Assembly (NCBI GenBank): GCA_015233115.1
Contig: JADFYJ010000003.1
Span: 104,536 to 168,535 of the forward strand
Source: Candidatus Omnitrophota bacterium
GTDB lineage: Bacteria; Omnitrophota; Gorgyraeia; Zapsychrales; Zapsychraceae
Direction: 5' to 3'
Length of the DNA stretch: 64,000 bases
Part shown: positions 10,917 to 50,606 of the stretch, piece after piece
Numbering within the stretch: position 1 is the stretch's first letter
How the letters are laid out: the number at the start of each line of letters is the position of its first letter
Notes under the pieces: generated by a model
The model's database searches: none
Seen by the model: only the letters and a program-made list of their open reading frames with translations
Told to the model about the DNA's origin: nothing
Position numbers and translations under genes: made by a program

Positions 10917-11734
10917 AAGTTTTAGTCCTGCGCACAGCAGGCACAAATTGCAACGGTGAAATGGCCAATGCTTTTGAGCATTTTGGCGCTCAAGTGGACC
11001 AGGTTCATATCAAGCGCTTGCGTCAGCATGAAATTTTGCTGAAGGATTATCATATTTTAGCTATTCCCGGCGGATTTACTTACGGCGATGATATTGAATC
11101 AGGCCGGATTTTGGCTAATGAATTGCGCTTGCATCTGGGAAAAGATTTGGCTCAATTTATTCAGGATAAAAAATTGATTATCGGCATATGCAACGGATTT
11201 CAGATTTTAGTTAAAGCGGGAATATTGCCCGGAAATTTGGATAAAGGACAATCTTCCATGGAAGAAGGATTTAAGCAGTCTTCGACTTTGACGAATAATG
11301 ATTCCGGAAAATTTGAAGATCGTTGGACTTATTTGAAGGTTGCCGGCGAAAGTGTATGGACGAAAAATTTATCGCCTGTCGTATATTTTCCGGTCGCGCA
11401 CGCGGAAGGCAAATTTATTCCCATGAGTGAGGACGTATTACAGGGATTAAAGCATAATCAGCAGATCGCGTTTACTTATTGTTCGGCTCAGGGAGGAGAG
11501 CCTGTTTATCCGGAAAACCCCAATGGATCGACTCTGCATATCGCGGGCATTACAGATGTGACTGGGAGGATCTTAGGCTTGATGCCGCATCCGGAACGCC
11601 ATTTTTATTTTGAAAACAGTCCTAATTGGAATGGACAGGCTAAAAAAAATAAATTAGGCGATGGCGCGCAGATTTTTAAAAATGGCGTGGAGTACGTGCG
11701 CAATACTTTATTAAGTAACCGAGTAACCGAGTGA
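10901..11734 (+). CDS. purQ: Phosphoribosylformylglycinamidine synthase glutaminase subunit
   Basis: KVLVLRTAGTNCNGE, catalytic GICNGFQIL, HPER; last codons (LSNRVTE-TGA) lie inside the GTAACCGA repeat array. Confidence 0.8.
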   Translation: MEKHIKVLVLRTAGTNCNGEMANAFEHFGAQVDQVHIKRLRQHEILLKDYHILAIPGGFTYGDDIESGRILANELRLHLGKDLAQFIQDKKLIIGICNGFQILVKAGILPGNLDKGQSSMEEGFKQSSTLTNNDSGKFEDRWTYLKVAGESVWTKNLSPVVYFPVAHAEGKFIPMSEDVLQGLKHNQQIAFTYCSAQGGEPVYPENPNGSTLHIAGITDVTGRILGLMPHPERHFYFENSPNWNGQAKKNKLGDGAQIFKNGVEYVRNTLLSNRVTE

Positions 11735-12037
11735 CAGAGAAAAAGCGTTTGGTGTAAAAAAAGCCGATGCGAGATAACAATAAAAAACGACTGCAAAAAG
11801 TAATAATCAATACTTAAGAGCAGAGACTAGTAATTTTTTCTGAAAAGTGTTTTAATGACATCCATTTTTATAATTTAGTTTATATTGTTATAAATTTATC
11901 GAATTTTTTTGTTATTGTTTTTTTTCGTCTATTTGTTTTAACTTTTTATTTTTAAATTTTATGTTTTTAAATAGCATTTTATTTTTTTGTTTTTACTCTG
12001 TTACTTGGTTACTCGGTTACTCGGTTACTCTGTCACT
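11714..12037 (+). repeat. Intergenic inverted-repeat cassette (GTRACMRA family), purQ-purM
   Basis: L 11714-11739 AGTAACCGAGTAACCGAGTGACAGAG + AAAAAGCGTTTGG; R 11993-12037 TACTCTGTTACTTGGTTACTCGGTTACTCGGTTACTCTGTCACTT. Confidence 0.8.
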
Positions 12038-13068: not shown

Positions 13069-13329
13069 CCAAGTAACCAAGTAACCGAGTAACCGAGTGA
13101 CAGAGAAAAAGCGGTTGGATTGAGAAATTAATAAATAAAAACTACGGGAAAAATAAAAAATTTAGAACAAGAGAAGCAGATAAAAAATGTGTGATTTTGT
13201 TGGTTTATTGGCATTAAATTTTATGCTTTATCGTTGTTAATGTGTTGTGCTGTTACGGTTTTTTTATTTTTTTAGCATTCGTTTTTTGTTTTTACTTTGT
13301 TACTCGGTTACTTGGTTACTCTGTCACTT
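13064..13329 (+). repeat. Intergenic inverted-repeat cassette (GTRACMRA family), purM-purD
   Basis: L 13064-13105 (GTAACCAA x2, GTAACCGA x2, GTGACAGA) + AAAAAGCGGTTGG; R 13295-13329 CTTTGTTACTCGGTTACTTGGTTACTCTGTCACTT; right side also has CATTCGTTTTTT (reverse complement of box variant). Confidence 0.8.
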
Positions 13330-17041: not shown

Positions 17042-17292
17042 AGTAACAGAGTAACCGAGTAACCGAGTTAAAAGAAAAAAGTGATTGGTTTAAAAGGCGA
17101 TATACACGATTGACGGGAAAACGGTAATGGCGGCTTAAAATAATTGATTACGTAGACGATTAAAGAAAATTTTAACGATATAATACAAATTACTTTTTGT
17201 TCGTCTTTTGTCTTTTTAAAATTATATTTGTGATTTGTGTTTTATTTATTTTGTTACTCTGTCACTCGGTTACTCGGTCACTTTGTTACTTT
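17042..17292 (+). repeat. Intergenic inverted-repeat cassette (GTRACMRA family), rpiB-glyA
   Basis: L 17042-17068 + AAAAGAAAAAAGTGATTGG; R 17251-17292 TTGTTACTCTGTCACTCGGTTACTCGGTCACTTTGTTACTT. Confidence 0.8.
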
Positions 17293-23233: not shown

Positions 23234-23356
23234 AATAGCCTCTTCGATTGGCAAAGCCGCCTATATATATGGCATACTTGTCATACTTCTTAAAAAAGTA
23301 AAAAGTAAAAATTCAAAGTAAAAGTAAAGCAAATCAGAAATAACATAAACAAAGTT

Positions 23357-26300
23357 ATGTTTAAGAAAAGTATTGTCTATTTTTTAATTTGTATATTTGT
23401 ATTACAAAATATTGTGATACCGGTGAGGGCTCATGCCCAGGTTTCGTCTGTGTCTGCGAGTGCAAATGTCCCGTTTGTCCCCCCATTGTTAAGCGGCATC
23501 ATAGTTGATTCGCAGAAACCATTTAAGTTCGATTTCCTGCTTGATACAGGCAATCGAAAATTAAATCAAGAAGAAATGAAGAGCATATCAAATCAACTTA
23601 TTAAATATTTTCTCGCCGCCTTAACCATTCCTGAAAATAAATTATGGGTCAATTTATCGCCGGCCGAACCAAAAAGAATCGTTGACACTCAATTAGGCCA
23701 GACCGCCATGGGCCAGGAAATGCTCGCAGAAGATTTTCTTTTGAAAAAATTAACTGCGTCAGTCCTGTCCCCAGAGAATGAGGCAGGAAGAAAGTTTTGG
23801 GATGCTGTTTATGAAAAAATATATGAAAATAGAAGAGAGAAAACAGAAGAAAGACAAGCCACAAAAAATAAAGCAACACCATCAATCGTTTCTAATCTAT
23901 CAGCTCTCGTCTATCCTCTATCGTCTGATAATTTTGATATTCCCGTCGACATTCTCTCCCGCGTCTGGATCGTTCCATCCGAAGCAGAAATATATCAAAA
24001 TGGCAATAAGGCCTATGTCGTTAAAGCAAGATTGAAGGTTATGACGGAGAGGGATTATTTAAGGACACAAAGGGACGAAAAAAATAAATTGATTCAAGAA
24101 AATATCATTCCTGTCCTCGAAAAAGAAGTCAACGAAGGCGAGCAATTCGCGCCTTTGCGTCAAATTTATTACTCTTACATTCTGGCCATGTGGTACAAAA
24201 AAACTTTGCATAACAGCATTGTAGCTAATTACGCGGATAAACAAAAAATTTCAGGAATAGAGAATGGCTCTCCTGCTAACATTCAAAAAATCTACGATCA
24301 ATATTTAACCGCTTTCCGCAAAGGCACCCAAGGCATTATAAAAGAGGAGTACGACCTCAATTCCCAGCAAATCGTCCCGCGGAAATATCTGACCGGTGGG
24401 GTCATATTACAAGGTAAATACAAAGTTAATCCAGACGGTGCCATGTTGCTTAAACCGTATGGTCAAATTTTTCAGGTTGCGGGAAATTTTGAGAATTCTA
24501 ATCTGACTGATCACGCGATGATTAATAATCTTACCGCGACGAACGATGTTCCCGCTATGTCATTGGATTATTGGAAATTGAAGCAAATGGGATTAAGACA
24601 AATTGGCGGCGGTGAGCAGACCCAAGTTGAATCAATGGAGGGCTGGCCCTTTGTGGTGAAATCTTTCTGGCCTTATTTGACGGATCGAGAAAAAAACGTT
24701 GCGATTTATGGTTATGATGTCACAGGGAAATCTGCTGGAGGATTAGTGGCTGAATTCGTTTATGTTAAAAATTATTTGAATGAGGTAGAAAAAATTATCA
24801 TGCGAAAAGCGGAAAGGACTGTTGATGGTGAACTGACTCGTTTAATAAAAGAAAAACATATAAAAGAATCCAAAAAAATATTGGATGAATATTTTGATTT
24901 GTTAAGCAATTTAATAAGACGAGGGCTTTTTCCTTGGGACGCAGGGTTCCAACATATAGGTATAATTGAGGGAAAACAAGTGGTAATTGATCCTGGGGTA
25001 TTTGTAAAAATTAATGATCCCCTGCGGTGGAATAGTCTGGCATTGCAGCTTGAGTCAAGAAAAGAAACATTGGAAGATCAATTTCATAGTCCTGAACTGG
25101 CAGATTATTTTCAAACCTTGATTGATGCGAAGGGGTTTACTTTAAATAAAATTGCAGAATCAGTTGGAAAAATATATGGGTTAGACTCCCCGCAAAGCAT
25201 GCCGGATATCAGTCAGGACATAGCAGAATCGATAACGGCAGCAGATTTGGAAAATGACCGGGCGATGATGGTCAAAAAATCTGTTGAAGCGGCATCCGCT
25301 GCCCAGGGCCGTTCTATTCAGGAAATACCACTTATATCGCAAGTCCAGAAGCGTAAGCCGATTCCAGATGACGTTAAAATTTTTGTGTTTGACTGGGATG
25401 ACACCATCTCGAAAGCTGTCTCTGAAGCTGCCTCTTACATTCAAGCGCCGGTTTTAGCTATGCTGATGACAGGAAAAGAAAATTCCGCGGATTTGACCGC
25501 TGAAGAAATCGAACATGGCCGGCAATTTTTTATGAATACTTTAGGCCGCACGGATGAGCAGCGTTATCAAGACGCCATAGCTTTTTCGAGCGGCAAGTCG
25601 GAACATTTTCAAATTAAAGAGCTTTTAAAACAATATTATAAAAATCAAGCAGACTTTATTGCTTCGCATTTGGCAGATTGGCGTCGGGAAATGAACAAGC
25701 ATTTGGTTCCTGGCGTATTGGACTTCATTTTAACTTTACGAGAATATGGTTATAAAATGTATATTTTATCCGCAAACGCTTATTTGAACGAACTCAAAGT
25801 CGTTGATGCTTTGGGTATGGGTAGTTATTTTTTTGAACTCAAAAATGTTACTAACGCGGGTGAGAATAATGCGGATTTTTCTAAAGGTGCAGAGCTGGAA
25901 AAATTGGCGCTGCGTGAGGAAGTGCGGCCGGACCAAATTGTGATGATTGGCGATGGTTCAAGTGATATGCGGGGCGCGCGGGAAGCCGGAACAATCTCCT
26001 TAGCTGTGGCGGAAGAATTCAATAAACAACTATCCATGGCAGAAAAATTTGATCCCCATATCATAATTCCGGATTTTCGTGATGTAGGCACATTAGTAAA
26101 AATTTTACAGCTGAAAGCCCAACAACCTCTGGTGGCTGGGGATGAAAAAATAATTTCTTCTTCTGTGGTACTGCCGGAAACAAGAGAGTTGTTTCATTGG
26201 CTAAATATTTCTATGGAAAGGACAGACGTTTCCCTGCCTTATCAATTGGTGTTGAGGCCATTTTTTCTTAATAAAAGAAAAACAGATTTTGAAGATGTCA

Positions 26301-29300
26301 TGGCGCCTAAACCAGCAGGGGTTAAAGAAAGATATCTTGCGGCATTGCCAGTCCCGGTACCGCAGCGAATTTCAATAGAAAAATTTTCGACACAAATCAA
26401 AGATCCCCAAACCGCAAAAACTGGTATTGAATTGGTTTTACGCCGGGTAAGACAGTTAATCAACGCTGGCCAATGGATTGGCCCGTTTGGCGGTTATGCG
26501 AAAATTAAAGAATATGCGGTAAATGTTATTAATGATTCCGCAATGATAGGTGATAATTCAAAGGCCCGGTCATATCTTAAAGCGGCAAGAGGACGGGTTT
26601 TGGAATATGATCCGTTTTTGGCGGCATTGATTATCGGTCATGGTGGACCATTGGATTTTGAACGCGATTTGTCAAAGTATTTTAAGTCATTTATAAAAAT
26701 CAAAGATCATTATAATTTACAGTCTTTTAACTTTGGTGAAGAAGTAGCTATAAAAGAATTTGATCGCTACCAGACTATGTCTATTGATGAATTGGGGAGT
26801 GTCGTGAGCGCATCTTTGGGTGCTATAACGCGGTTACAGAATGTTTTAGAATCGGAAGCAAAAAATTTGTCATTGAAAACTTTGAATAAAAACCTTAATG
26901 ATGATGCTGTAAGAAGGGAAAGATATTTCAAAGAATTACAACGGCGCTATACTTCTTTGTTTGCTAATAAAAATTTTTATGAGGATAATAAAGCCGAGAT
27001 TGCGGACTATATAAAACAATATTACGTTAATACAACGATTATGATGCGGGCTTTCTGGTCTAAAATAGAAGCAAAGGGTTGGTTAAATGATGATGACCCG
27101 GAAGTTAAAGAAGCCTGGCGTGACATCAAAGGTTTCTTTGATAAATGGATTCCAAATTTCGAACATTTGGCTATGTTTCTTGACGAAAATTTTGTCAACA
27201 CCTGGAAAAAAGAGGGCGTGACTATTGATAACTTAAATAATTGGTTAGATCCCAAAGATCAAATTTGGGATTCCAAAGGGAATAAATATCAGGTAACTTT
27301 TCATGGAACGCAGAATAAGCTAGAGGCGTTTTGGCCGGACAAATTAGTCCATTTAGCGATCGAACGGTTGATTTCAAATGGATATCATGCCATTGAAAAA
27401 AATGCCGCGGAATTAGATGATCAACTTGAGCATGTTGATTTATATTTAGAACAAAATGAGGAATTGGCACAAAAAGGACAAGTAAAGATTAGTATTGAAA
27501 ATCCCGGACGCATTTCCTATAAAGTTGTCACCAAAGATCAGATTAGTCCGATTATGGATTGGGAGCTGTTTTGTAAATATGTAATTATGAGCGGGTGGGG
27601 ATGGCAAATTAATGAAAATGAAGTGCGTTTAGGGCAATGGGATCAAGAACATTTGAAAGCATATTTTGAAAGTAAGGCTGAACAGCTTTTGCCTATTTTG
27701 GAACATGCCCAAGAACGAAGCGGGTTAGAACTTGATCCTGAAAAGGGTTTGCCGCAGATTTTGTTGTTAGATCACACCAGATTTAATTATTCCCATGGTA
27801 TAGGTTTGCCGTTCGCGGTGCGGGTATTTCAACGCATGGGGGGAAAGGTGGAGATAAAAAATACCGAACACGGAAAAATTCCTTACACCCGTTTTGAAAT
27901 TACCCTGCCTTTATCGCCGGAAAATGTTTTTAATGATCATGCCATGATGGGTAGAGGGCATGATGCGTCATTGGAAGAGATGTATCGTCCAACTCTATGG
28001 TCGGAAAAAGAAAGTCAGTTAATCGGCGCGGAAATCGCGGAAGAAACAGGCTGGGTTGAAAGCACCCCTAAAAACGTCTTTATCCCTCCGGATCTAAAAA
28101 AGCAATTTTCATGGATGGGTGACAATCCTATTACGGTTTATTCGTCTGCTTTCGCGCGTAACATTAAATGCATGGTAAAAATCGGGTATTTATTTTTTAT
28201 GGCTGAGGCGGATTATGACGATTTACCTGCTGACATCCAAACTCAGATTAAACACAATGTCATTTGGACTCAAGAATATTTGCCTAAAACATTATTAGAT
28301 CATCCGCAAGCGTGGGCGACGATTTTAAGTATGATGATGGCTGACTTATCAGCATTTCATACTATCGTTGAAGATCAAGGGGAAGGAATATTATCCGCCG
28401 TAGCCTTGAAATTGGGCGTAGCCAAAGCGTTAATTGTGTCCTCACAGGGTGACCAAAAGGCGACAATTAATAAAAATTTGTACGTCAATGGAATAAACGA
28501 AGAACAGGTTGAAATAGCGGCCGGAACAATGGCGCGGCCTGAATTTTTAGGGGAATATTTAGATGATAGTTTAGGAAAAGTCATTGTTGTATCCAATGGT
28601 GAGGCGCATGGCTCAGAAAAAAGGCAGCAAATTTTTAATTTTATTGAACGGTTTAAGGATGATTTAAATACTAAAGCCGTTATTTTGGGAAGCTATGCTG
28701 TTGATGATGAAGGTGCTCAAGCCATGCGTTTTGATCTGAATTTTGCTTTAAGAAAGGGGCTGGTTACAGACAATATTTTTTTCAAAAGTCCGCTGGTGCA
28801 GGTTGATAATATGGCCGCTCTTTTTATTCCAGTTCATACGTTAGAAATGCCGGCTGGTCTAGAGTCGAAAAATTTTCCCTATGAACAAGATAAAGCCATG
28901 ATTTCAGACGGGCAAACGTTGAGTCAAATAAGCGCTTCTTTGGATAAATTAAATTATGTTTATCAGGCCATGATCCAGCGCAAGGCAGATATGTCTAGAG
29001 TAAAAGCGGCGGATATTCTGGCTGAGGACATATTGCGGCATGATATTCATAAGGTCGTAGTCGTGGGGACGGGATTGACTTATTTACCGGTTTTGTTATC
29101 TTTATCCGGGTTGGAGGTTATTTTTATTGATAATGACGAGGCAAAGAAAGAAGCCATAGATATTTATGTTCATTACTGGGCAGAACAATTTCATGTTAAC
29201 GTAAATTACCGATCTTACAAAGTGGCATTTGGTAGTTCTGAAGCTGCGGCAGCCTTGAAAGAGGATTTAAATAGATTTGATTTGGTTACTATGGTTGATT

Positions 29301-30376
29301 TTTCGGGCGAATATCCGGAAAATTGGGCGGGACAAGTTAAAGCGTTGCTGGAAGGCGGCCAAGGTTATGTGGTTTTAGATGCGGCGGATCAAGACTCGAA
29401 AATAAGTTCTCGGTTTAACCGGGCTTTTAAAAGAGTTGAAGATATAAATGCGCGGTCTTTTTCCGGTGAATTTTCCGTTTACCCCGGAAGCTTGAATAAA
29501 CTTTTTTATGTCAGAGATGAGGCGATGATTTCAGATGAGGGAGACAGAAGTCAGGGATTGAATTCGTTCAGCGCTCCTGAGGAAAAATTGGAATTTGTTT
29601 ATAAAAAAATGATGGCGGAAAACGCTGGTCCAGTCAAAATGAAAGACAAAGCCTATCAACTGTCCAAAGAAATACTACAGCATCATATTCAGAAGGTCGC
29701 GGTAGTGGGAAAAGGATTATATTATCTGCCAATTTTTTTAGCTTTATCCGGATTGGAAGTTGTTTTTATAGACATGGATGCTTCGGTTAAAAATAATATG
29801 GATGCTTATATCAAATATTGCGAGGAAATATTTGGAGTTAGCGCGTTGAACTATCGGTCATATCAATTGGAATTTGGGAGCAGGGAAGGCGGGGTGGCAT
29901 TGCGCGGTGAAATGAATAAATTTGATTTGGTTACTATGGTTGATTTAGTCGGCGGCATCCCTCACGGCGTTGCTGGTTGGGCGGAACAAACCAAGGCATT
30001 ATTAAAAAATGGGAAGGGTTACGCGGTTTTAGATGTCGCGGAATTTTCGAATGAAAAAGCTCAATTAGAGTCTCGCTTTGCGGAGGTTTTTCCAAAATTG
30101 GCAAAAATATCCGGCGCTTATCAGGGAGAATATCTGACATTTCCCAGAAGTACAAATGTCCTTTTTTCCACCGGAGATGAAGAAGTAAACCCGGCTCAGG
30201 AGCGGGCTCCCGGCGGGATTGATTTTAATTCACAGTATTTAAATTTAAAAACCCGCGGCCAATCCGTGGATTTGAGTGTTGACCCCGCTCAACTGCAGCA
30301 AATTAATATTGAAGGTTTAATACCGGTCATCACTTCTATTGCCCTGGTCCCAAATCTTTCAGAAGTCCTTCGTTAG
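23357..30376 (+). CDS. Giant secreted multidomain protein (HAD-like hydrolase domain, His-kinase-type ATPase-like segment, two tandem ~190-aa Rossmann-like repeats)
   Basis: 2339-aa uninterrupted ORF; signal peptide MFKKSIVYFLICIFVLQNIVIPVRAHA; HAD motifs FVFDWDDT and IGDGSSDMRGAREAG; HATPase_c-like HGIGLPFAVRVFQRMGGKVEI; internal duplication with identical 26-mer tttgatttggttactatggttgattt at ~29275 and ~29921. Confidence 0.6.
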   Translation: MFKKSIVYFLICIFVLQNIVIPVRAHAQVSSVSASANVPFVPPLLSGIIVDSQKPFKFDFLLDTGNRKLNQEEMKSISNQLIKYFLAALTIPENKLWVNLSPAEPKRIVDTQLGQTAMGQEMLAEDFLLKKLTASVLSPENEAGRKFWDAVYEKIYENRREKTEERQATKNKATPSIVSNLSALVYPLSSDNFDIPVDILSRVWIVPSEAEIYQNGNKAYVVKARLKVMTERDYLRTQRDEKNKLIQENIIPVLEKEVNEGEQFAPLRQIYYSYILAMWYKKTLHNSIVANYADKQKISGIENGSPANIQKIYDQYLTAFRKGTQGIIKEEYDLNSQQIVPRKYLTGGVILQGKYKVNPDGAMLLKPYGQIFQVAGNFENSNLTDHAMINNLTATNDVPAMSLDYWKLKQMGLRQIGGGEQTQVESMEGWPFVVKSFWPYLTDREKNVAIYGYDVTGKSAGGLVAEFVYVKNYLNEVEKIIMRKAERTVDGELTRLIKEKHIKESKKILDEYFDLLSNLIRRGLFPWDAGFQHIGIIEGKQVVIDPGVFVKINDPLRWNSLALQLESRKETLEDQFHSPELADYFQTLIDAKGFTLNKIAESVGKIYGLDSPQSMPDISQDIAESITAADLENDRAMMVKKSVEAASAAQGRSIQEIPLISQVQKRKPIPDDVKIFVFDWDDTISKAVSEAASYIQAPVLAMLMTGKENSADLTAEEIEHGRQFFMNTLGRTDEQRYQDAIAFSSGKSEHFQIKELLKQYYKNQADFIASHLADWRREMNKHLVPGVLDFILTLREYGYKMYILSANAYLNELKVVDALGMGSYFFELKNVTNAGENNADFSKGAELEKLALREEVRPDQIVMIGDGSSDMRGAREAGTISLAVAEEFNKQLSMAEKFDPHIIIPDFRDVGTLVKILQLKAQQPLVAGDEKIISSSVVLPETRELFHWLNISMERTDVSLPYQLVLRPFFLNKRKTDFEDVMAPKPAGVKERYLAALPVPVPQRISIEKFSTQIKDPQTAKTGIELVLRRVRQLINAGQWIGPFGGYAKIKEYAVNVINDSAMIGDNSKARSYLKAARGRVLEYDPFLAALIIGHGGPLDFERDLSKYFKSFIKIKDHYNLQSFNFGEEVAIKEFDRYQTMSIDELGSVVSASLGAITRLQNVLESEAKNLSLKTLNKNLNDDAVRRERYFKELQRRYTSLFANKNFYEDNKAEIADYIKQYYVNTTIMMRAFWSKIEAKGWLNDDDPEVKEAWRDIKGFFDKWIPNFEHLAMFLDENFVNTWKKEGVTIDNLNNWLDPKDQIWDSKGNKYQVTFHGTQNKLEAFWPDKLVHLAIERLISNGYHAIEKNAAELDDQLEHVDLYLEQNEELAQKGQVKISIENPGRISYKVVTKDQISPIMDWELFCKYVIMSGWGWQINENEVRLGQWDQEHLKAYFESKAEQLLPILEHAQERSGLELDPEKGLPQILLLDHTRFNYSHGIGLPFAVRVFQRMGGKVEIKNTEHGKIPYTRFEITLPLSPENVFNDHAMMGRGHDASLEEMYRPTLWSEKESQLIGAEIAEETGWVESTPKNVFIPPDLKKQFSWMGDNPITVYSSAFARNIKCMVKIGYLFFMAEADYDDLPADIQTQIKHNVIWTQEYLPKTLLDHPQAWATILSMMMADLSAFHTIVEDQGEGILSAVALKLGVAKALIVSSQGDQKATINKNLYVNGINEEQVEIAAGTMARPEFLGEYLDDSLGKVIVVSNGEAHGSEKRQQIFNFIERFKDDLNTKAVILGSYAVDDEGAQAMRFDLNFALRKGLVTDNIFFKSPLVQVDNMAALFIPVHTLEMPAGLESKNFPYEQDKAMISDGQTLSQISASLDKLNYVYQAMIQRKADMSRVKAADILAEDILRHDIHKVVVVGTGLTYLPVLLSLSGLEVIFIDNDEAKKEAIDIYVHYWAEQFHVNVNYRSYKVAFGSSEAAAALKEDLNRFDLVTMVDFSGEYPENWAGQVKALLEGGQGYVVLDAADQDSKISSRFNRAFKRVEDINARSFSGEFSVYPGSLNKLFYVRDEAMISDEGDRSQGLNSFSAPEEKLEFVYKKMMAENAGPVKMKDKAYQLSKEILQHHIQKVAVVGKGLYYLPIFLALSGLEVVFIDMDASVKNNMDAYIKYCEEIFGVSALNYRSYQLEFGSREGGVALRGEMNKFDLVTMVDLVGGIPHGVAGWAEQTKALLKNGKGYAVLDVAEFSNEKAQLESRFAEVFPKLAKISGAYQGEYLTFPRSTNVLFSTGDEEVNPAQERAPGGIDFNSQYLNLKTRGQSVDLSVDPAQLQQINIEGLIPVITSIALVPNLSEVLR

Positions 30377-30492
30377 TTAAATAATGGCTAAAATCTTTAA
30401 TTGCGCTAATTGATTGGCTTAATTATGGCTAATTAAGTTGACAGGTTGGCTTAATTATGGCAAAATTATCCTGGATTATATGAAAGGAAATT

Positions 30493-39659: not shown

Positions 39660-39675
39660 TGTTTTAATTTAGTTA

Positions 39676-39930
39676 AGTAACCGAGTAACAGAGTAACCGA
39701 GTGACAGAGCAAAACGATTTATGAGAATAAAAATGGTGATTTACTTATAAAAAATGATTGAGTGAAAAAGCGAAAAAGATAAATTAAACGAGAATGAAAA
39801 GATGTAATAAATTTAAAGGTGTTTAAGTTTTGGGATAATATTTTTGTTTATTAGTATTTGGATAATAGTTTACCGACATTTATTTTTACGTTTTTCTTTT
39901 TCGCTCTGTTACTCGGTTACTCGGTTACTT
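39676..39930 (+). repeat. Intergenic inverted-repeat cassette (GTRACMRA family), miaA-hflX
   Basis: L 39676-39709 AGTAACCGAGTAACAGAGTAACCGAGTGACAGAG + CAAAACGATTTATG; R 39904-39930 CTCTGTTACTCGGTTACTCGGTTACTT; inner flanks GAAAAAGCGAAAAAG / CTTTTTCGCTC also mirror. Confidence 0.8.
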
Positions 39931-39945
39931 AAAAGGGGAGCACCT

Positions 39946-47062: not shown

Positions 47063-47109
47063 AAGATGTGTATGAAAATTTAGGGTTTTTGTTTTTTGTT
47101 TAGTTTTTT

Positions 47110-47382
47110 ACTTTGTTACTCTGTTACTCGGTTACTTTGTTACTTAATGATTACAGGAAATATATGAAGATAGAGTAGGGGGCACGCGGGTTGAGGATGT
47201 ACGCGATAAAAAATATAGATAATATGTTAAAGAAGATGATGGCTTTTGTAGAAAAATTGACTTAGTTTTTTTGTTTAATAATCTTAGCTTTAAATTTTTA
47301 GTTTTTGATTTTTTGTATTTGATTTTGTATAGCTTTTTTACGTTTTTACTCTGTCACTCGGTTACTTGGTTACTCTGTTACT
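47110..47382 (+). repeat. Two right-type GTRACMRA arrays in the mosaic grpE-dnaK spacer
   Basis: 47110-47145 CTTTGTTACTCTGTTACTCGGTTACTTTGTTACTT and 47346-47382 TTTACTCTGTCACTCGGTTACTTGGTTACTCTGTTACT; between them 47146-47205 copies the purE leader (TTAATGATTACAGGAAATAT.TGAAGATAGAG...GGGGCACGCGG.TTG.GGATGTACGCG, cf. 14766-14835). Confidence 0.7.
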
Positions 47383-50504: not shown

Positions 50505-50606
50505 GTCGTAGGGGCGATCTCCTGATCGCCCGTTAAAAAATTAGCGCTTTTGTTTTTTGGTTTTGCTTTTGCTTTGTTACTCTGTTACTTGGTTACTCTG
50601 TTACTA
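50505..50606 (+). repeat. Solo GC-rich hairpin element plus right-type GTRACMRA array upstream of FmdB-family gene
   Basis: 50505-50536 GTCGTAGGGGCGATCTCCTGATCGCCCGTTAA; 50571-50606 CTTTGTTACTCTGTTACTTGGTTACTCTGTTACT. Confidence 0.7.

Follow-up and report, generated by a model that had tools for sequence, protein, structure and literature searches.

A predicted exported multi-enzyme protein from a very large Omnitrophota family with constant ends and variable cargo

Introduction

Bacteria of the phylum Omnitrophota have been described as host-dependent nanobacteria (PMC10066038), and some of their giant proteins carry methyltransferase, HATPase_c, HAD_2, NUDIX and glycolytic domains in a single chain (10.1101/2023.11.21.568195; 10.64898/2026.06.07.730766). 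These proteins are the subject of work on 'Archaeovorins' (West-Roberts et al. 2023; 10.1101/2023.11.21.568195) and on 'multi-enzyme metabolic clusters', the Pfam co-occurrence 'Module 1' of Nielsen & Lui 2026 (10.64898/2026.06.07.730766). Intragenic domain repeats are frequent in the giants, the nucleotide similarity between them having decayed, and topologies with signal peptides or transmembrane segments prevail (10.1101/2023.11.21.568195; 10.64898/2026.06.07.730766). Here we describe a gene encoding a protein of 2,339 amino acids (aa) in a 64,000-nucleotide (nt) stretch, hereafter the window, of contig JADFYJ010000003.1 from a metagenome-assembled genome (MAG) of Candidatus Omnitrophota. 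The protein combines a predicted signal peptide, two terminal domains that define a family with thousands of members, and an interior made of enzyme-like modules.

Comparable designs are known from other bacteria and from mobile elements. MARTX toxins have conserved N- and C-terminal arms that flank enzymatic effector modules shuffled between strains; the linkers are processing sites, and the cargo acts in the cytoplasm of the target cell. They are substrates of the type I secretion system (T1SS) without a Sec signal peptide, their arms are glycine-rich repeats and they contain an internal cysteine protease domain. Polymorphic toxins join a constant trafficking part to exchangeable cassettes at a boundary peptide motif (VENN in CdiA, PxxxxDPxGL in Rhs), the cassette being a single C-terminal toxin whose immunity gene lies next to it (PMC3482391). 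The polyvalent proteins of phages and conjugative elements contain 2-15 enzyme domains per polypeptide, are delivered into another cell and are often processed by a protease (Iyer et al. 2017, PMC5512222).

Results and Discussion

A very large family with constant ends

The gene occupies 23357..30376 (+) of the window as one unbroken frame. Its product is 100% identical to GenBank MBF0478353.1, annotated 'HAD hydrolase-like protein', from a Candidatus Omnitrophota MAG and a contig of 169 kb. A homologue search returned hundreds of Omnitrophota proteins of 1.3-4 kaa (thousand aa), each matching only ~15-17% of the query, and no second full-length relative beyond the identical record. In local BLAST comparisons aa ~28-385 are common to all 119 of the 119 homologues listed (41-48% identity), and the middle is not common; the last ~55-70 aa recur in ~70 relatives by BLAST, and the C-terminal domain is found by motif in 114 of 120 family proteins. 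We refer to these two regions as the N-domain and the C-domain, and together as the frame.

23438..24520, + strand: N-terminal frame domain, aa 28-388, with invariant WVNLSP, LRQ and RKY..GG (RKYFSGG)
30182..30373, + strand: C-terminal frame domain, aa 2276-2339, with PGGIDFN ... DPAQL ... GLIPVITSIALVPNLSEVLR

A profile of the N-domain, built from 25 members, matches the protein at E 1.7e-136 (hmmsearch) and picks up 8305 cluster representatives (clusters at 50% identity), of which 6804 score E<=1e-30; among the matches listed the domain is always single and N-terminal. The C-domain (~55 aa) has the consensus pGGIDlNp..lnLqt.g.G..i.fp.dpa.le.l.ni.GfvPVIInItPvtnLplfLGl (GGIDxN...PVIxxIxP), and its profile matches aa 2290-2354 of the stop-to-stop frame, that is, the last 65 aa, at E 1.4e-20 (hmmsearch). 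The N-domain has no model in Pfam or NCBIfam, a Pfam search with all 25 aligned members giving nothing consistent, and the C-domain has no curated model in either. A scan of one genome per species revealed more than 589 family loci, and the best 79 of these all belong to Omnitrophota MAGs or to MAGs with doubtful labels. Among the independent loci, 65 complete open reading frames (ORFs) of 681-3361 aa carry both domains; ORFs with the C-domain only are truncated by contig ends. Genomes contain several copies, for example at least eight in isolate OFTM38.

Together these data make it nearly certain that the protein is a member of a very large, Omnitrophota-specific family of cargo carriers framed by an N- and a C-domain. 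It is an ordinary member, and the features of the family are the interesting part.

Several observations accompany this finding. The source MAG has at least two further paralogues besides MBF0478353.1 (at least three copies in all): MBF0478323.1 (HQL26_02470; 1969 aa), encoded outside the window on the same contig, its accession number lower by 30, and MBF0479490.1 (3871 aa). Loci L062 and L071 come from a MAG labelled 'Candidatus Elulimicrobium sp.' (NCBI taxonomy: Patescibacteria group) and several others bear the label 'uncultured Planctomycetales'; the labels may be wrong, or else the family extends past Omnitrophota. An AlphaFold2 (AF2) model of the N-domain (predicted local distance difference test, pLDDT, 71.8; predicted template modelling score, pTM, 0.71) consists of beta-hairpins alternating with long helices. 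Five ClyA-family pore-forming toxins appeared as insignificant Foldseek matches only (E ~1, TM-score ~0.1) and are not counted as evidence. The low-complexity insert RREKTEERQATKNKATPSIVSNLSALVYPLSS (32 aa; aa 159-190; 23831-23926), which derives from two 14-nt tandem duplications, lies in a low-confidence loop of the N-domain model, and relative P0002 carries the same low-complexity peptide in two different loops.

Signal peptide and cysteine depletion

The N-domain is preceded by a sequence with the tripartite form of a cleavable signal peptide.

23357..23437, + strand: signal peptide, aa 1-27, with n-region MFKK, h-region aa 5-23 SIVYFLICIFVLQNIVIPV and cleavage-type site RAHA–QV (AHA–Q)

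A hydrophobicity scan shows that aa 5-23 are the sole strongly hydrophobic 19-residue window of the protein. The next-highest windows are beta1-alphaA segments of Rossmann type, and a second transmembrane-like stretch is therefore lacking. In MBF0478353.1 the start is annotated at GTG 23450, 31 codons downstream, so that the residues of the signal peptide (23357-23449) are missing. The ATG at 23357 restores a presequence (K/R, hydrophobic core, small-x-small) that is found 5' of the N-domain in 112 of 119 relatives, which suggests that family members may be systematically mis-started, and thereby mis-localised, in databases. The possibility of a lipoprotein was rejected: C12 lies inside the h-region, there is no small residue at -1, and the residue is not conserved in relatives.

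The composition of the protein carries a second signature. Its 2339 aa include just four cysteines (0.17%), of which the signal peptide has one. Mean contents are 0.11% for the 119 relatives and 0.14% for a set of 104 independent family ORFs, compared to 1.23% in the other ORFs of the window and 1.3-1.4% in the neighbours of the related loci. Proteins of the window with canonical signal peptides are equally poor in cysteine (0-0.4%). The family is thus approximately 10-fold depleted in cysteine, like canonical exported proteins of the same genome.

The few cysteines that relatives retain fall in catalytic positions. In P0033 and P0109 the CxxxCxxC motif of a radical S-adenosylmethionine (SAM) domain is intact; P0097, with 2802 aa, has only two cysteines, both within CASCTTNS, the active-site stretch of GAPDH with its SCTTN motif; and P0017 has, apart from its signal peptide, a single cysteine, located in a nitrilase-type active site. 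We read a purge of cysteine that spares catalytic residues as selection against cysteine because of export, combined with selection for catalysis. A radical-SAM domain behind a Sec-type presequence is hard to square with the loading of an iron-sulphur (Fe-S) cluster in the producer.

The original prediction for this stretch, a reading of the sequence alone, had also considered that the hydrophobic segment might be a membrane anchor. The protein would then be a cytoplasmic multi-enzyme chain tethered to the inner membrane, its N-terminal segment uncleaved and its cargo supplied with cofactors in the producer's own cytoplasm. Consistent with this, the cargo types are classical cytoplasmic enzymes, the public annotation leaves out the hydrophobic segment, and many giants with transmembrane segments only have been reported (10.64898/2026.06.07.730766). 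The succession of a positive N-terminus, one hydrophobic segment and an A-x-A site nevertheless predicts either an N-in/C-out orientation or cleavage, and the 10-fold cysteine depletion matches the exported and not the cytoplasmic proteins of the genome. We keep the tethered protein as a low-ranked and very improbable alternative.

A peptide motif delimits the modules

The interior of the protein is punctuated by seven copies of a short motif, D-x-A-M-(L/I/V/M).

24434..24448, + strand: delimiter 1, DGAML, aa 360
24509..24523, + strand: delimiter 2, DHAMI, aa 385, end of the N-domain
25256..25270, + strand: delimiter 3, DRAMM, aa 634, between M2 and the HAD module
26534..26548, + strand: delimiter 4, DSAMI, aa 1060
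27935..27949, + strand: delimiter 5, DHAMM, aa 1527, directly after the GHKL-like module
28889..28903, + strand: delimiter 6, DKAMI, aa 1845, between M5 and R1
29516..29530, + strand: delimiter 7, DEAMI, aa 2054, between R1 and R2

Each of the seven closes a module and leads into a polar linker. In 120 family proteins (254 kaa) the pattern D.AM[LIVMF] occurs 212 times, compared to 8.0 +/- 2.6 times in shuffled sequences, and D.AM is the most enriched gapped 4-mer of the cargo regions (296 vs 22.9); overall, the enrichment is 13-26-fold. The density is 0.82 per kaa in the independent family ORFs and 0.06 in their neighbours. The C-domain contains a related peptide, DPA(M/Q)L. Codon usage at the motif (Asp codons at background, Ala codons mildly skewed) led us to reject a recombination site acting at the level of DNA, and indicates that the constraint is mainly on the peptide. 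We read D-x-A-M as a hinge or a processing signal at which the chain may be cleaved.

The cargo modules

Between the frame domains we distinguish eight modules.

24557..25243, + strand: M2, aa 401-629, protein-kinase-like fold (tentative), with G-rich loop IGGGEQ, VVK, D..F.H and DPG
25373..26101, + strand: M3, aa 673-915, HAD-superfamily phosphatase core, with DxDxT as FDWDDT and GDxxxD as GDGSSD
26102..27253, + strand: M3b (aa 916-1062) and M4a (aa 1063-1299), together ~380 aa, divided by DSAMI at aa 1060
27254..27934, + strand: M4b, aa 1300-1526, divergent GHKL ATPase-like module of histidine-kinase type, with a ~65-aa insert between the G1-like and G2 boxes
27944..28897, + strand: M5, aa 1530-1847, PrmA/PRMT-like class I methyltransferase-fold module with shortened motif I
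28898..29524, + strand: R1, aa 1848-2056, class I SAM-methyltransferase fold, predicted from R2
29525..30181, + strand: R2, aa 2057-2275, class I SAM-methyltransferase fold, predicted from AF2 and Foldseek
29276..29301, + strand: exact 26-nt stretch in R1, encoding FDLVTMVD
29921..29946, + strand: the same 26-nt stretch in R2

M2, M4b, M5 and the R module recur across relatives in varying order. Other cargo of relatives includes the combinations TIM, GAPDH and FBPase; PGK, adenylate kinase and a cyclic-nucleotide (cNMP)-binding domain; NMNAT, nitrilase and NAD synthase; and radical SAM with histidine phosphatase. Some relatives carry HEAT and WD40 repeats.

When Pfam and NCBIfam were searched with the whole protein and segment by segment, HAD alone was significant, and no adhesin, RTX, autotransporter or sorting-signal model was matched. 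M3 matches Pfam Hydrolase (PF00702) at E 6e-14 and also exceeds the gathering scores of HAD_2 (PF13419), HAD and Hydrolase_like; for PF00702 and PF13419 the scores are 53-55 bits vs a cut-off of 26.4. Motifs I and IV are intact and align to the solved HAD structure PDB 2ybd; NCBIfam matches are of HAD-IA type, none of them at the equivalog cut-off. The nearest described enzymes are HAD phosphatases of subfamily IA type (phosphoglycolate phosphatase, PpaX, CTE7-like), from which M3 differs in being one of eight modules in a predicted exported protein of 2,339 aa.

Module profiles were built from only 3-5 local sequences each. M2 has homologues in relatives P0004 and P0106, and its profile finds sub-threshold PDB matches only (E 0.05-0.3), 9 of 12 being kinase folds (KSR1/2, LegK7, AceK). 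VVK and DPG are kept in all three of the three copies, and the Asn of the catalytic loop is His in this protein; a protein-kinase-like fold is probable from sequence, and we assign it tentatively. M3b and M4a have no match in Pfam, in the PDB or among local homologues, and the composition of M4a suggests a largely helical structure.

M4b scores 18 bits against Pfam HATPase_c (PF02518), for which the cut-off is 26.4 (E 0.004 on the segment). A profile made from this module together with its copies in relatives matches VanS (2e-5), WalK (1e-4) and CheA in the PDB, in a range of 2e-5 to 0.03; homologous modules occur in P0026 and P0020, and the module recurs in relatives annotated as histidine kinases. 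The N-box Asn and the G2 box (HGIGLPF) are kept, and the G1 Asp is replaced (ENPGR). HisKA, HisKA_3 and HAMP give no match at E<=1 with the whole protein or at E<=10 with the segment, which sets the protein apart from two-component sensor kinases. M5 is similar to modules of P0008 (phmmer E 1e-12) and P0010 (E 2e-5), and its profile, which is driven by the modules of relatives, matches PRMT7 (7e-10) and PrmA (6e-9) in the PDB. Motif I reads VEDQGEGIL in this protein, compared to VIDVGAGEGVL.

Much of the original prediction is borne out by these results. It had proposed a single uninterrupted ORF, and no frameshift divides the 2339 codons; it had proposed a signal peptide, for which the lone hydrophobic window and the A-x-A site speak on heuristic grounds; and the HAD phosphatase core is confirmed by Pfam and by both motifs. 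Its histidine-kinase-type ATPase-like segment survives as a set of profile matches to VanS, WalK and CheA, below the Pfam cut-off and with the G1 Asp lost. An adhesin or RTX architecture, which it had named as the alternative to watch for, finds no support in Pfam or NCBIfam.

An old tandem repeat of methyltransferase folds

R1 and R2 are genuine tandem repeats, as had been predicted (phmmer E 1e-48), with 48% aa and 62% nt identity. Synonymous divergence (dS) is ~1.19 and non-synonymous divergence (dN) ~0.43; synonymous sites are thus near saturation, and the duplication is old. The original prediction had called it recent on the strength of an identical 26-nt stretch. The stretch is there, at 29276 and 29921, and exact matches of this length were found in none of 100 shuffles (0 matches). 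In the codon alignment it is part of an identical run of 27 nt, an outlier at P ~6e-4 under independent sites, which points to a local conversion patch or to a codon-level constraint on FDLVTMVD, and not to a young duplication.

The AF2 model of R2 has a pLDDT of ~90 over the core, and Foldseek finds 620 PDB matches at E<=1e-3 (top E 3e-8, probability 1.0), the top matches listed being methyltransferases, among them protein-lysine methyltransferases and UbiG, and the related aminopropyltransferases (spermidine synthases). Pfam gives a weak match to Methyltransf_12 only (E 0.095). A G-x-G loop is kept in both repeats, as is an acidic residue where beta2 ends. The model thus assigns R2 to the class I SAM-methyltransferase fold, and R1 follows by homology, with SAM binding and transfer as predicted activities; the 'Rossmann-like nucleotide-binding' label of the original prediction is replaced accordingly. 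A homologue search with aa 1848-2275 returned no match, not even the identical public protein, and so is not evidence of absence.

These results bear on the reading from which the analysis started, in which the protein is a unique, recently assembled fusion of HAD, HATPase and freshly duplicated nucleotide-binding units with no obvious described counterpart. The exact 26-nt match and the want of a full-length homologue besides the identical record are what it would predict. It is refuted by the divergence of the repeats, by the thousands of proteins with the same frame (the layout is standard in a family with >8,000 cluster representatives) and by the literature, where the domain mix has already been reported, and we give it next to no credence. 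The defining features of the family had been overlooked: the N- and C-domains, the D-x-A-M delimiters and the depletion of cysteine.

A proposed Sec-exported carrier of enzymes

Taken as a whole, the observations are best explained by a Sec-exported enzyme carrier that is probably delivered onto or into a host cell, a reading to which we give a probability of roughly 0.45. The cleavable signal peptide would take the unfolded chain across the inner membrane. The constant frame would presumably handle onward secretion, anchoring or translocation, and the variable middle would carry enzyme modules that are swapped between paralogues. In the protein described here, the cargo would amount to a phospho- and methyl-transfer toolkit (kinase-like, HAD, GHKL-like, PrmA/PRMT-like and two paralogous methyltransferase folds), with modules closed by D-x-A-M-(L/I/V/M) and a polar linker as a possible hinge or processing signal. 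The modules might then act as metabolic or modifying effectors in the cytoplasm of another cell, or at the zone of contact with a host or prey.

The argument for a foreign compartment is one of economy. Neither the periplasm nor the space outside cells is known to supply ATP, SAM, nicotinamide adenine dinucleotide (NAD) or Fe-S clusters. The cargo types need one or other of these, yet the proteins look exported; action in a foreign cytoplasm or in a contact zone is the most economical way to reconcile the two. That the proteins act outside the cytoplasm of the producer we consider likely. That they are delivered to or into a host cell is more tentative, and would fit the host-dependent lifestyle proposed for Omnitrophota (PMC10066038). 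The suggestion of export toward a host or prey, made originally for an enzyme-module protein with a signal peptide, thus stands as a possible and favoured reading.

A number of points weigh against it. For such a Sec substrate we know of no path into the cytoplasm of a foreign cell, and neither this locus nor the 79 related loci encode a secretion, translocation, protease or immunity partner nearby. The signal peptide was called heuristically, from hydrophobicity and site pattern. The N-domain has no profile match to PDB sequences and no significant Foldseek match in the PDB or BFVD, and the AF2 model of the C-domain is of low confidence and mostly coil. D-x-A-M is without occurrence in 47 of 120 relatives, and hence cannot be obligatory. 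Two modules, finally, have weakened cofactor motifs (the G1 Asp lost in M4b, motif I short in M5) and may be inactive.

The missing translocation apparatus would be expected if the protein stayed with its producer, and this is the main alternative: a surface-retained or periplasmic enzyme scaffold, exported by Sec and held in the periplasm, on the outer membrane or in a 'coat', with frame domains that anchor and modules that process prey-released or environmental material outside the cytoplasm. The export signature would be identical. For Omnitrophota giants with similar domains a mainly extracellular or membrane-associated location has been predicted, and a coat or the pre-processing of substrates has been suggested as their role (10.1101/2023.11.21.568195; 10.64898/2026.06.07.730766; PMC10066038). 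Against a scaffold stands the nature of the cargo, since the kinase-like, GHKL, SAM-methyltransferase, radical-SAM, GAPDH, PGK and NAD-synthase modules need ATP, SAM, NAD or Fe-S, and so does the fact that selection has kept catalytic cysteines. Known means of retention also failed to appear: there is no lipobox, and PEP-CTERM, LPXTG, the C-terminal domain of type IX secretion substrates and autotransporter beta-domains (beta-barrels) have no Pfam or NCBIfam match, at E<=1 with the whole protein and at E<=10 with the C-terminal 75 aa. We hold the scaffold to be somewhat unlikely.

The weakened motifs suggest a different alternative, in which the protein has a structural or adhesive role without catalysis and consists of decayed enzyme folds, its modules serving as binding or spacer units with vestigial similarity to enzymes. 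HAD alone passes Pfam thresholds in this member, the GHKL-like module has lost the G1 Asp and has an insert that splits the ATP lid, motif I of M5 is shortened, some relatives carry HEAT and WD40 repeats, and the domains of Omnitrophota giants have been described as highly divergent. The catalytic motifs of the HAD module are intact, though, and R1 and R2 keep the G-x-G loop and the acidic residue of beta2. In the cysteine-purged relatives it is precisely the catalytic cysteines that are left, a pattern that speaks for selection on catalysis. We consider this alternative improbable.

The reading of a Sec-exported carrier can also be stated in a stronger form, namely that N/C-framed proteins constitute a phylum-wide, Sec-dependent effector delivery system. 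An N-domain of novel fold, perhaps together with the C-domain, would carry unfolded, cysteine-free polyproteins through the envelope into the cytoplasm of a host or prey; the modules, possibly separated at D-x-A-M, would refold there, draw on the ATP, SAM, NAD and Fe-S of the host, and rewire its metabolism and signalling to the benefit of the nanobacterium. The present protein would then be a package of kinase, phosphatase, ATPase and three methyltransferases directed against host proteins or metabolites. We regard this stronger form as unlikely.

Comparison with described systems

The Omnitrophota giants are the nearest relatives in kind: they belong to the same phylum, commonly have signal peptides and string cytoplasmic-type enzymes along one polypeptide. 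Unlike the present protein, with its 2,339 aa and a signal peptide only, they are at least 10,000 or at least 30,000 aa long, mostly have many transmembrane helices and carry SecA-like/C39, glycosyltransferase or dockerin domains, of which there are none here. By Pfam and a scan for transmembrane segments the protein falls outside the definition of an Archaeovorin (at least 30,000 aa, multiple transmembrane segments, glycosyltransferases, glycosyl hydrolases, peptidases, SecA-like/C39); the overlap is confined to methyltransferase, HATPase and HAD content.

The likeness to MARTX toxins lies in constant arms around shuffled effector modules joined by linkers, and is functional. The present protein has a Sec-type signal peptide, it has no sequence or fold relationship to MARTX, and RTX/MARTX repeats, the C80 cysteine protease and a T1SS signal have no Pfam or NCBIfam match at E<=1. 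With the polymorphic toxins it would share a constant trafficking part, exchangeable cassettes and a boundary peptide; it differs from their single C-terminal toxin and adjacent immunity gene in having several internal metabolic, signalling or modifying modules, a conserved C-terminus and no immunity-like neighbour. Polyvalent proteins likewise place methyltransferases, hydrolases, kinases and other enzymes in one polypeptide (PMC5512222), but are encoded by mobile elements and delivered with DNA, whereas the gene described here lies among housekeeping genes and its product has a Sec signal peptide. The protein belongs to none of these three classes, and the analogies are functional ones.

In the literature searched, the coverage of which was incomplete, we found no mention of the N- and C-domains, of D-x-A-M, of cysteine depletion or of the motif strings of the frame, and no report of catalytic cysteines retained in spite of depletion. 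The domain mix and the puzzle of 'exported enzymes' are already known from the giants, and the mid-size, framed family with a signal peptide only was not found in that literature.

The family is of interest for what it may reveal about its bearers. Omnitrophota are widespread, tiny and host-dependent, and attention has so far gone to genes of record length. The present locus shows the logic of many enzymes on one exported chain in a compact and analysable form: the family runs to thousands of members with the same beginning and end, a short motif marks module boundaries, and a strong purge of cysteine spares catalytic residues. The puzzle of why cytoplasmic enzymes bear signal peptides becomes a set of testable questions, concerning the destination of the proteins, cleavage at D-x-A-M and the partners of the N- and C-domains, and proteins of ~0.7-3 kaa can be expressed and modelled, unlike giants of 40-150 kaa. 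If the modules act inside host cells, they would represent a new principle of effector delivery; if they act on the surface, an unusual extracellular metabolism. The family, which is apparently uncurated, may be how Omnitrophota act on other cells.

Genomic setting

The gene is set among ordinary chromosomal genes. By Pfam, the upstream neighbours are a CCA-adding enzyme, a Macro-NUDIX protein and a CDF transporter, and the downstream neighbours an AAA_14/DUF4143 ATPase, PtsP and RNase T; further ORFs of the window resemble purine-biosynthesis genes, glyA, nrdR and dnaK/dnaJ, judged from N-terminal sequence alone. At the related loci the commonest neighbour, and the only recurrent one, is a gene for a membrane-bound GAF-HD-GYP protein of the cyclic di-GMP (c-di-GMP) phosphodiesterase type, present within 6 kb in 14 of the 79; an example is at ~14.2-15.8 kb in locus L015.

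The gene is bordered by short repeats, (AAAAGT)x5.5 directly 5' (23293-23328) and a 32-nt x2 tandem repeat directly 3' (30398-30461). It is possible that these are regulatory elements or take the place of a terminator; a scan for consensus promoters and terminators around the gene found no more than in shuffled controls.

The window also contains a dispersed intergenic repeat of 30-90 nt with a core of the type GTTACTC(T/G)GTTACT. It has at least 12 sites, occurs in either orientation and frequently lies directly 5' of a gene.

1676-1702, 1940-1995, 11703-11742, 11943-12029, 13079-13108 and 17042-17073, both orientations overall: dispersed repeat
17227-17284, 39675-39714, 39891-39934, 47079-47138, 47284-47374 and 50549-50605, both orientations overall: dispersed repeat, continued

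In two mechanically called ORFs the repeat creates spurious N-terminal extensions that read 'SLCYSVT'.

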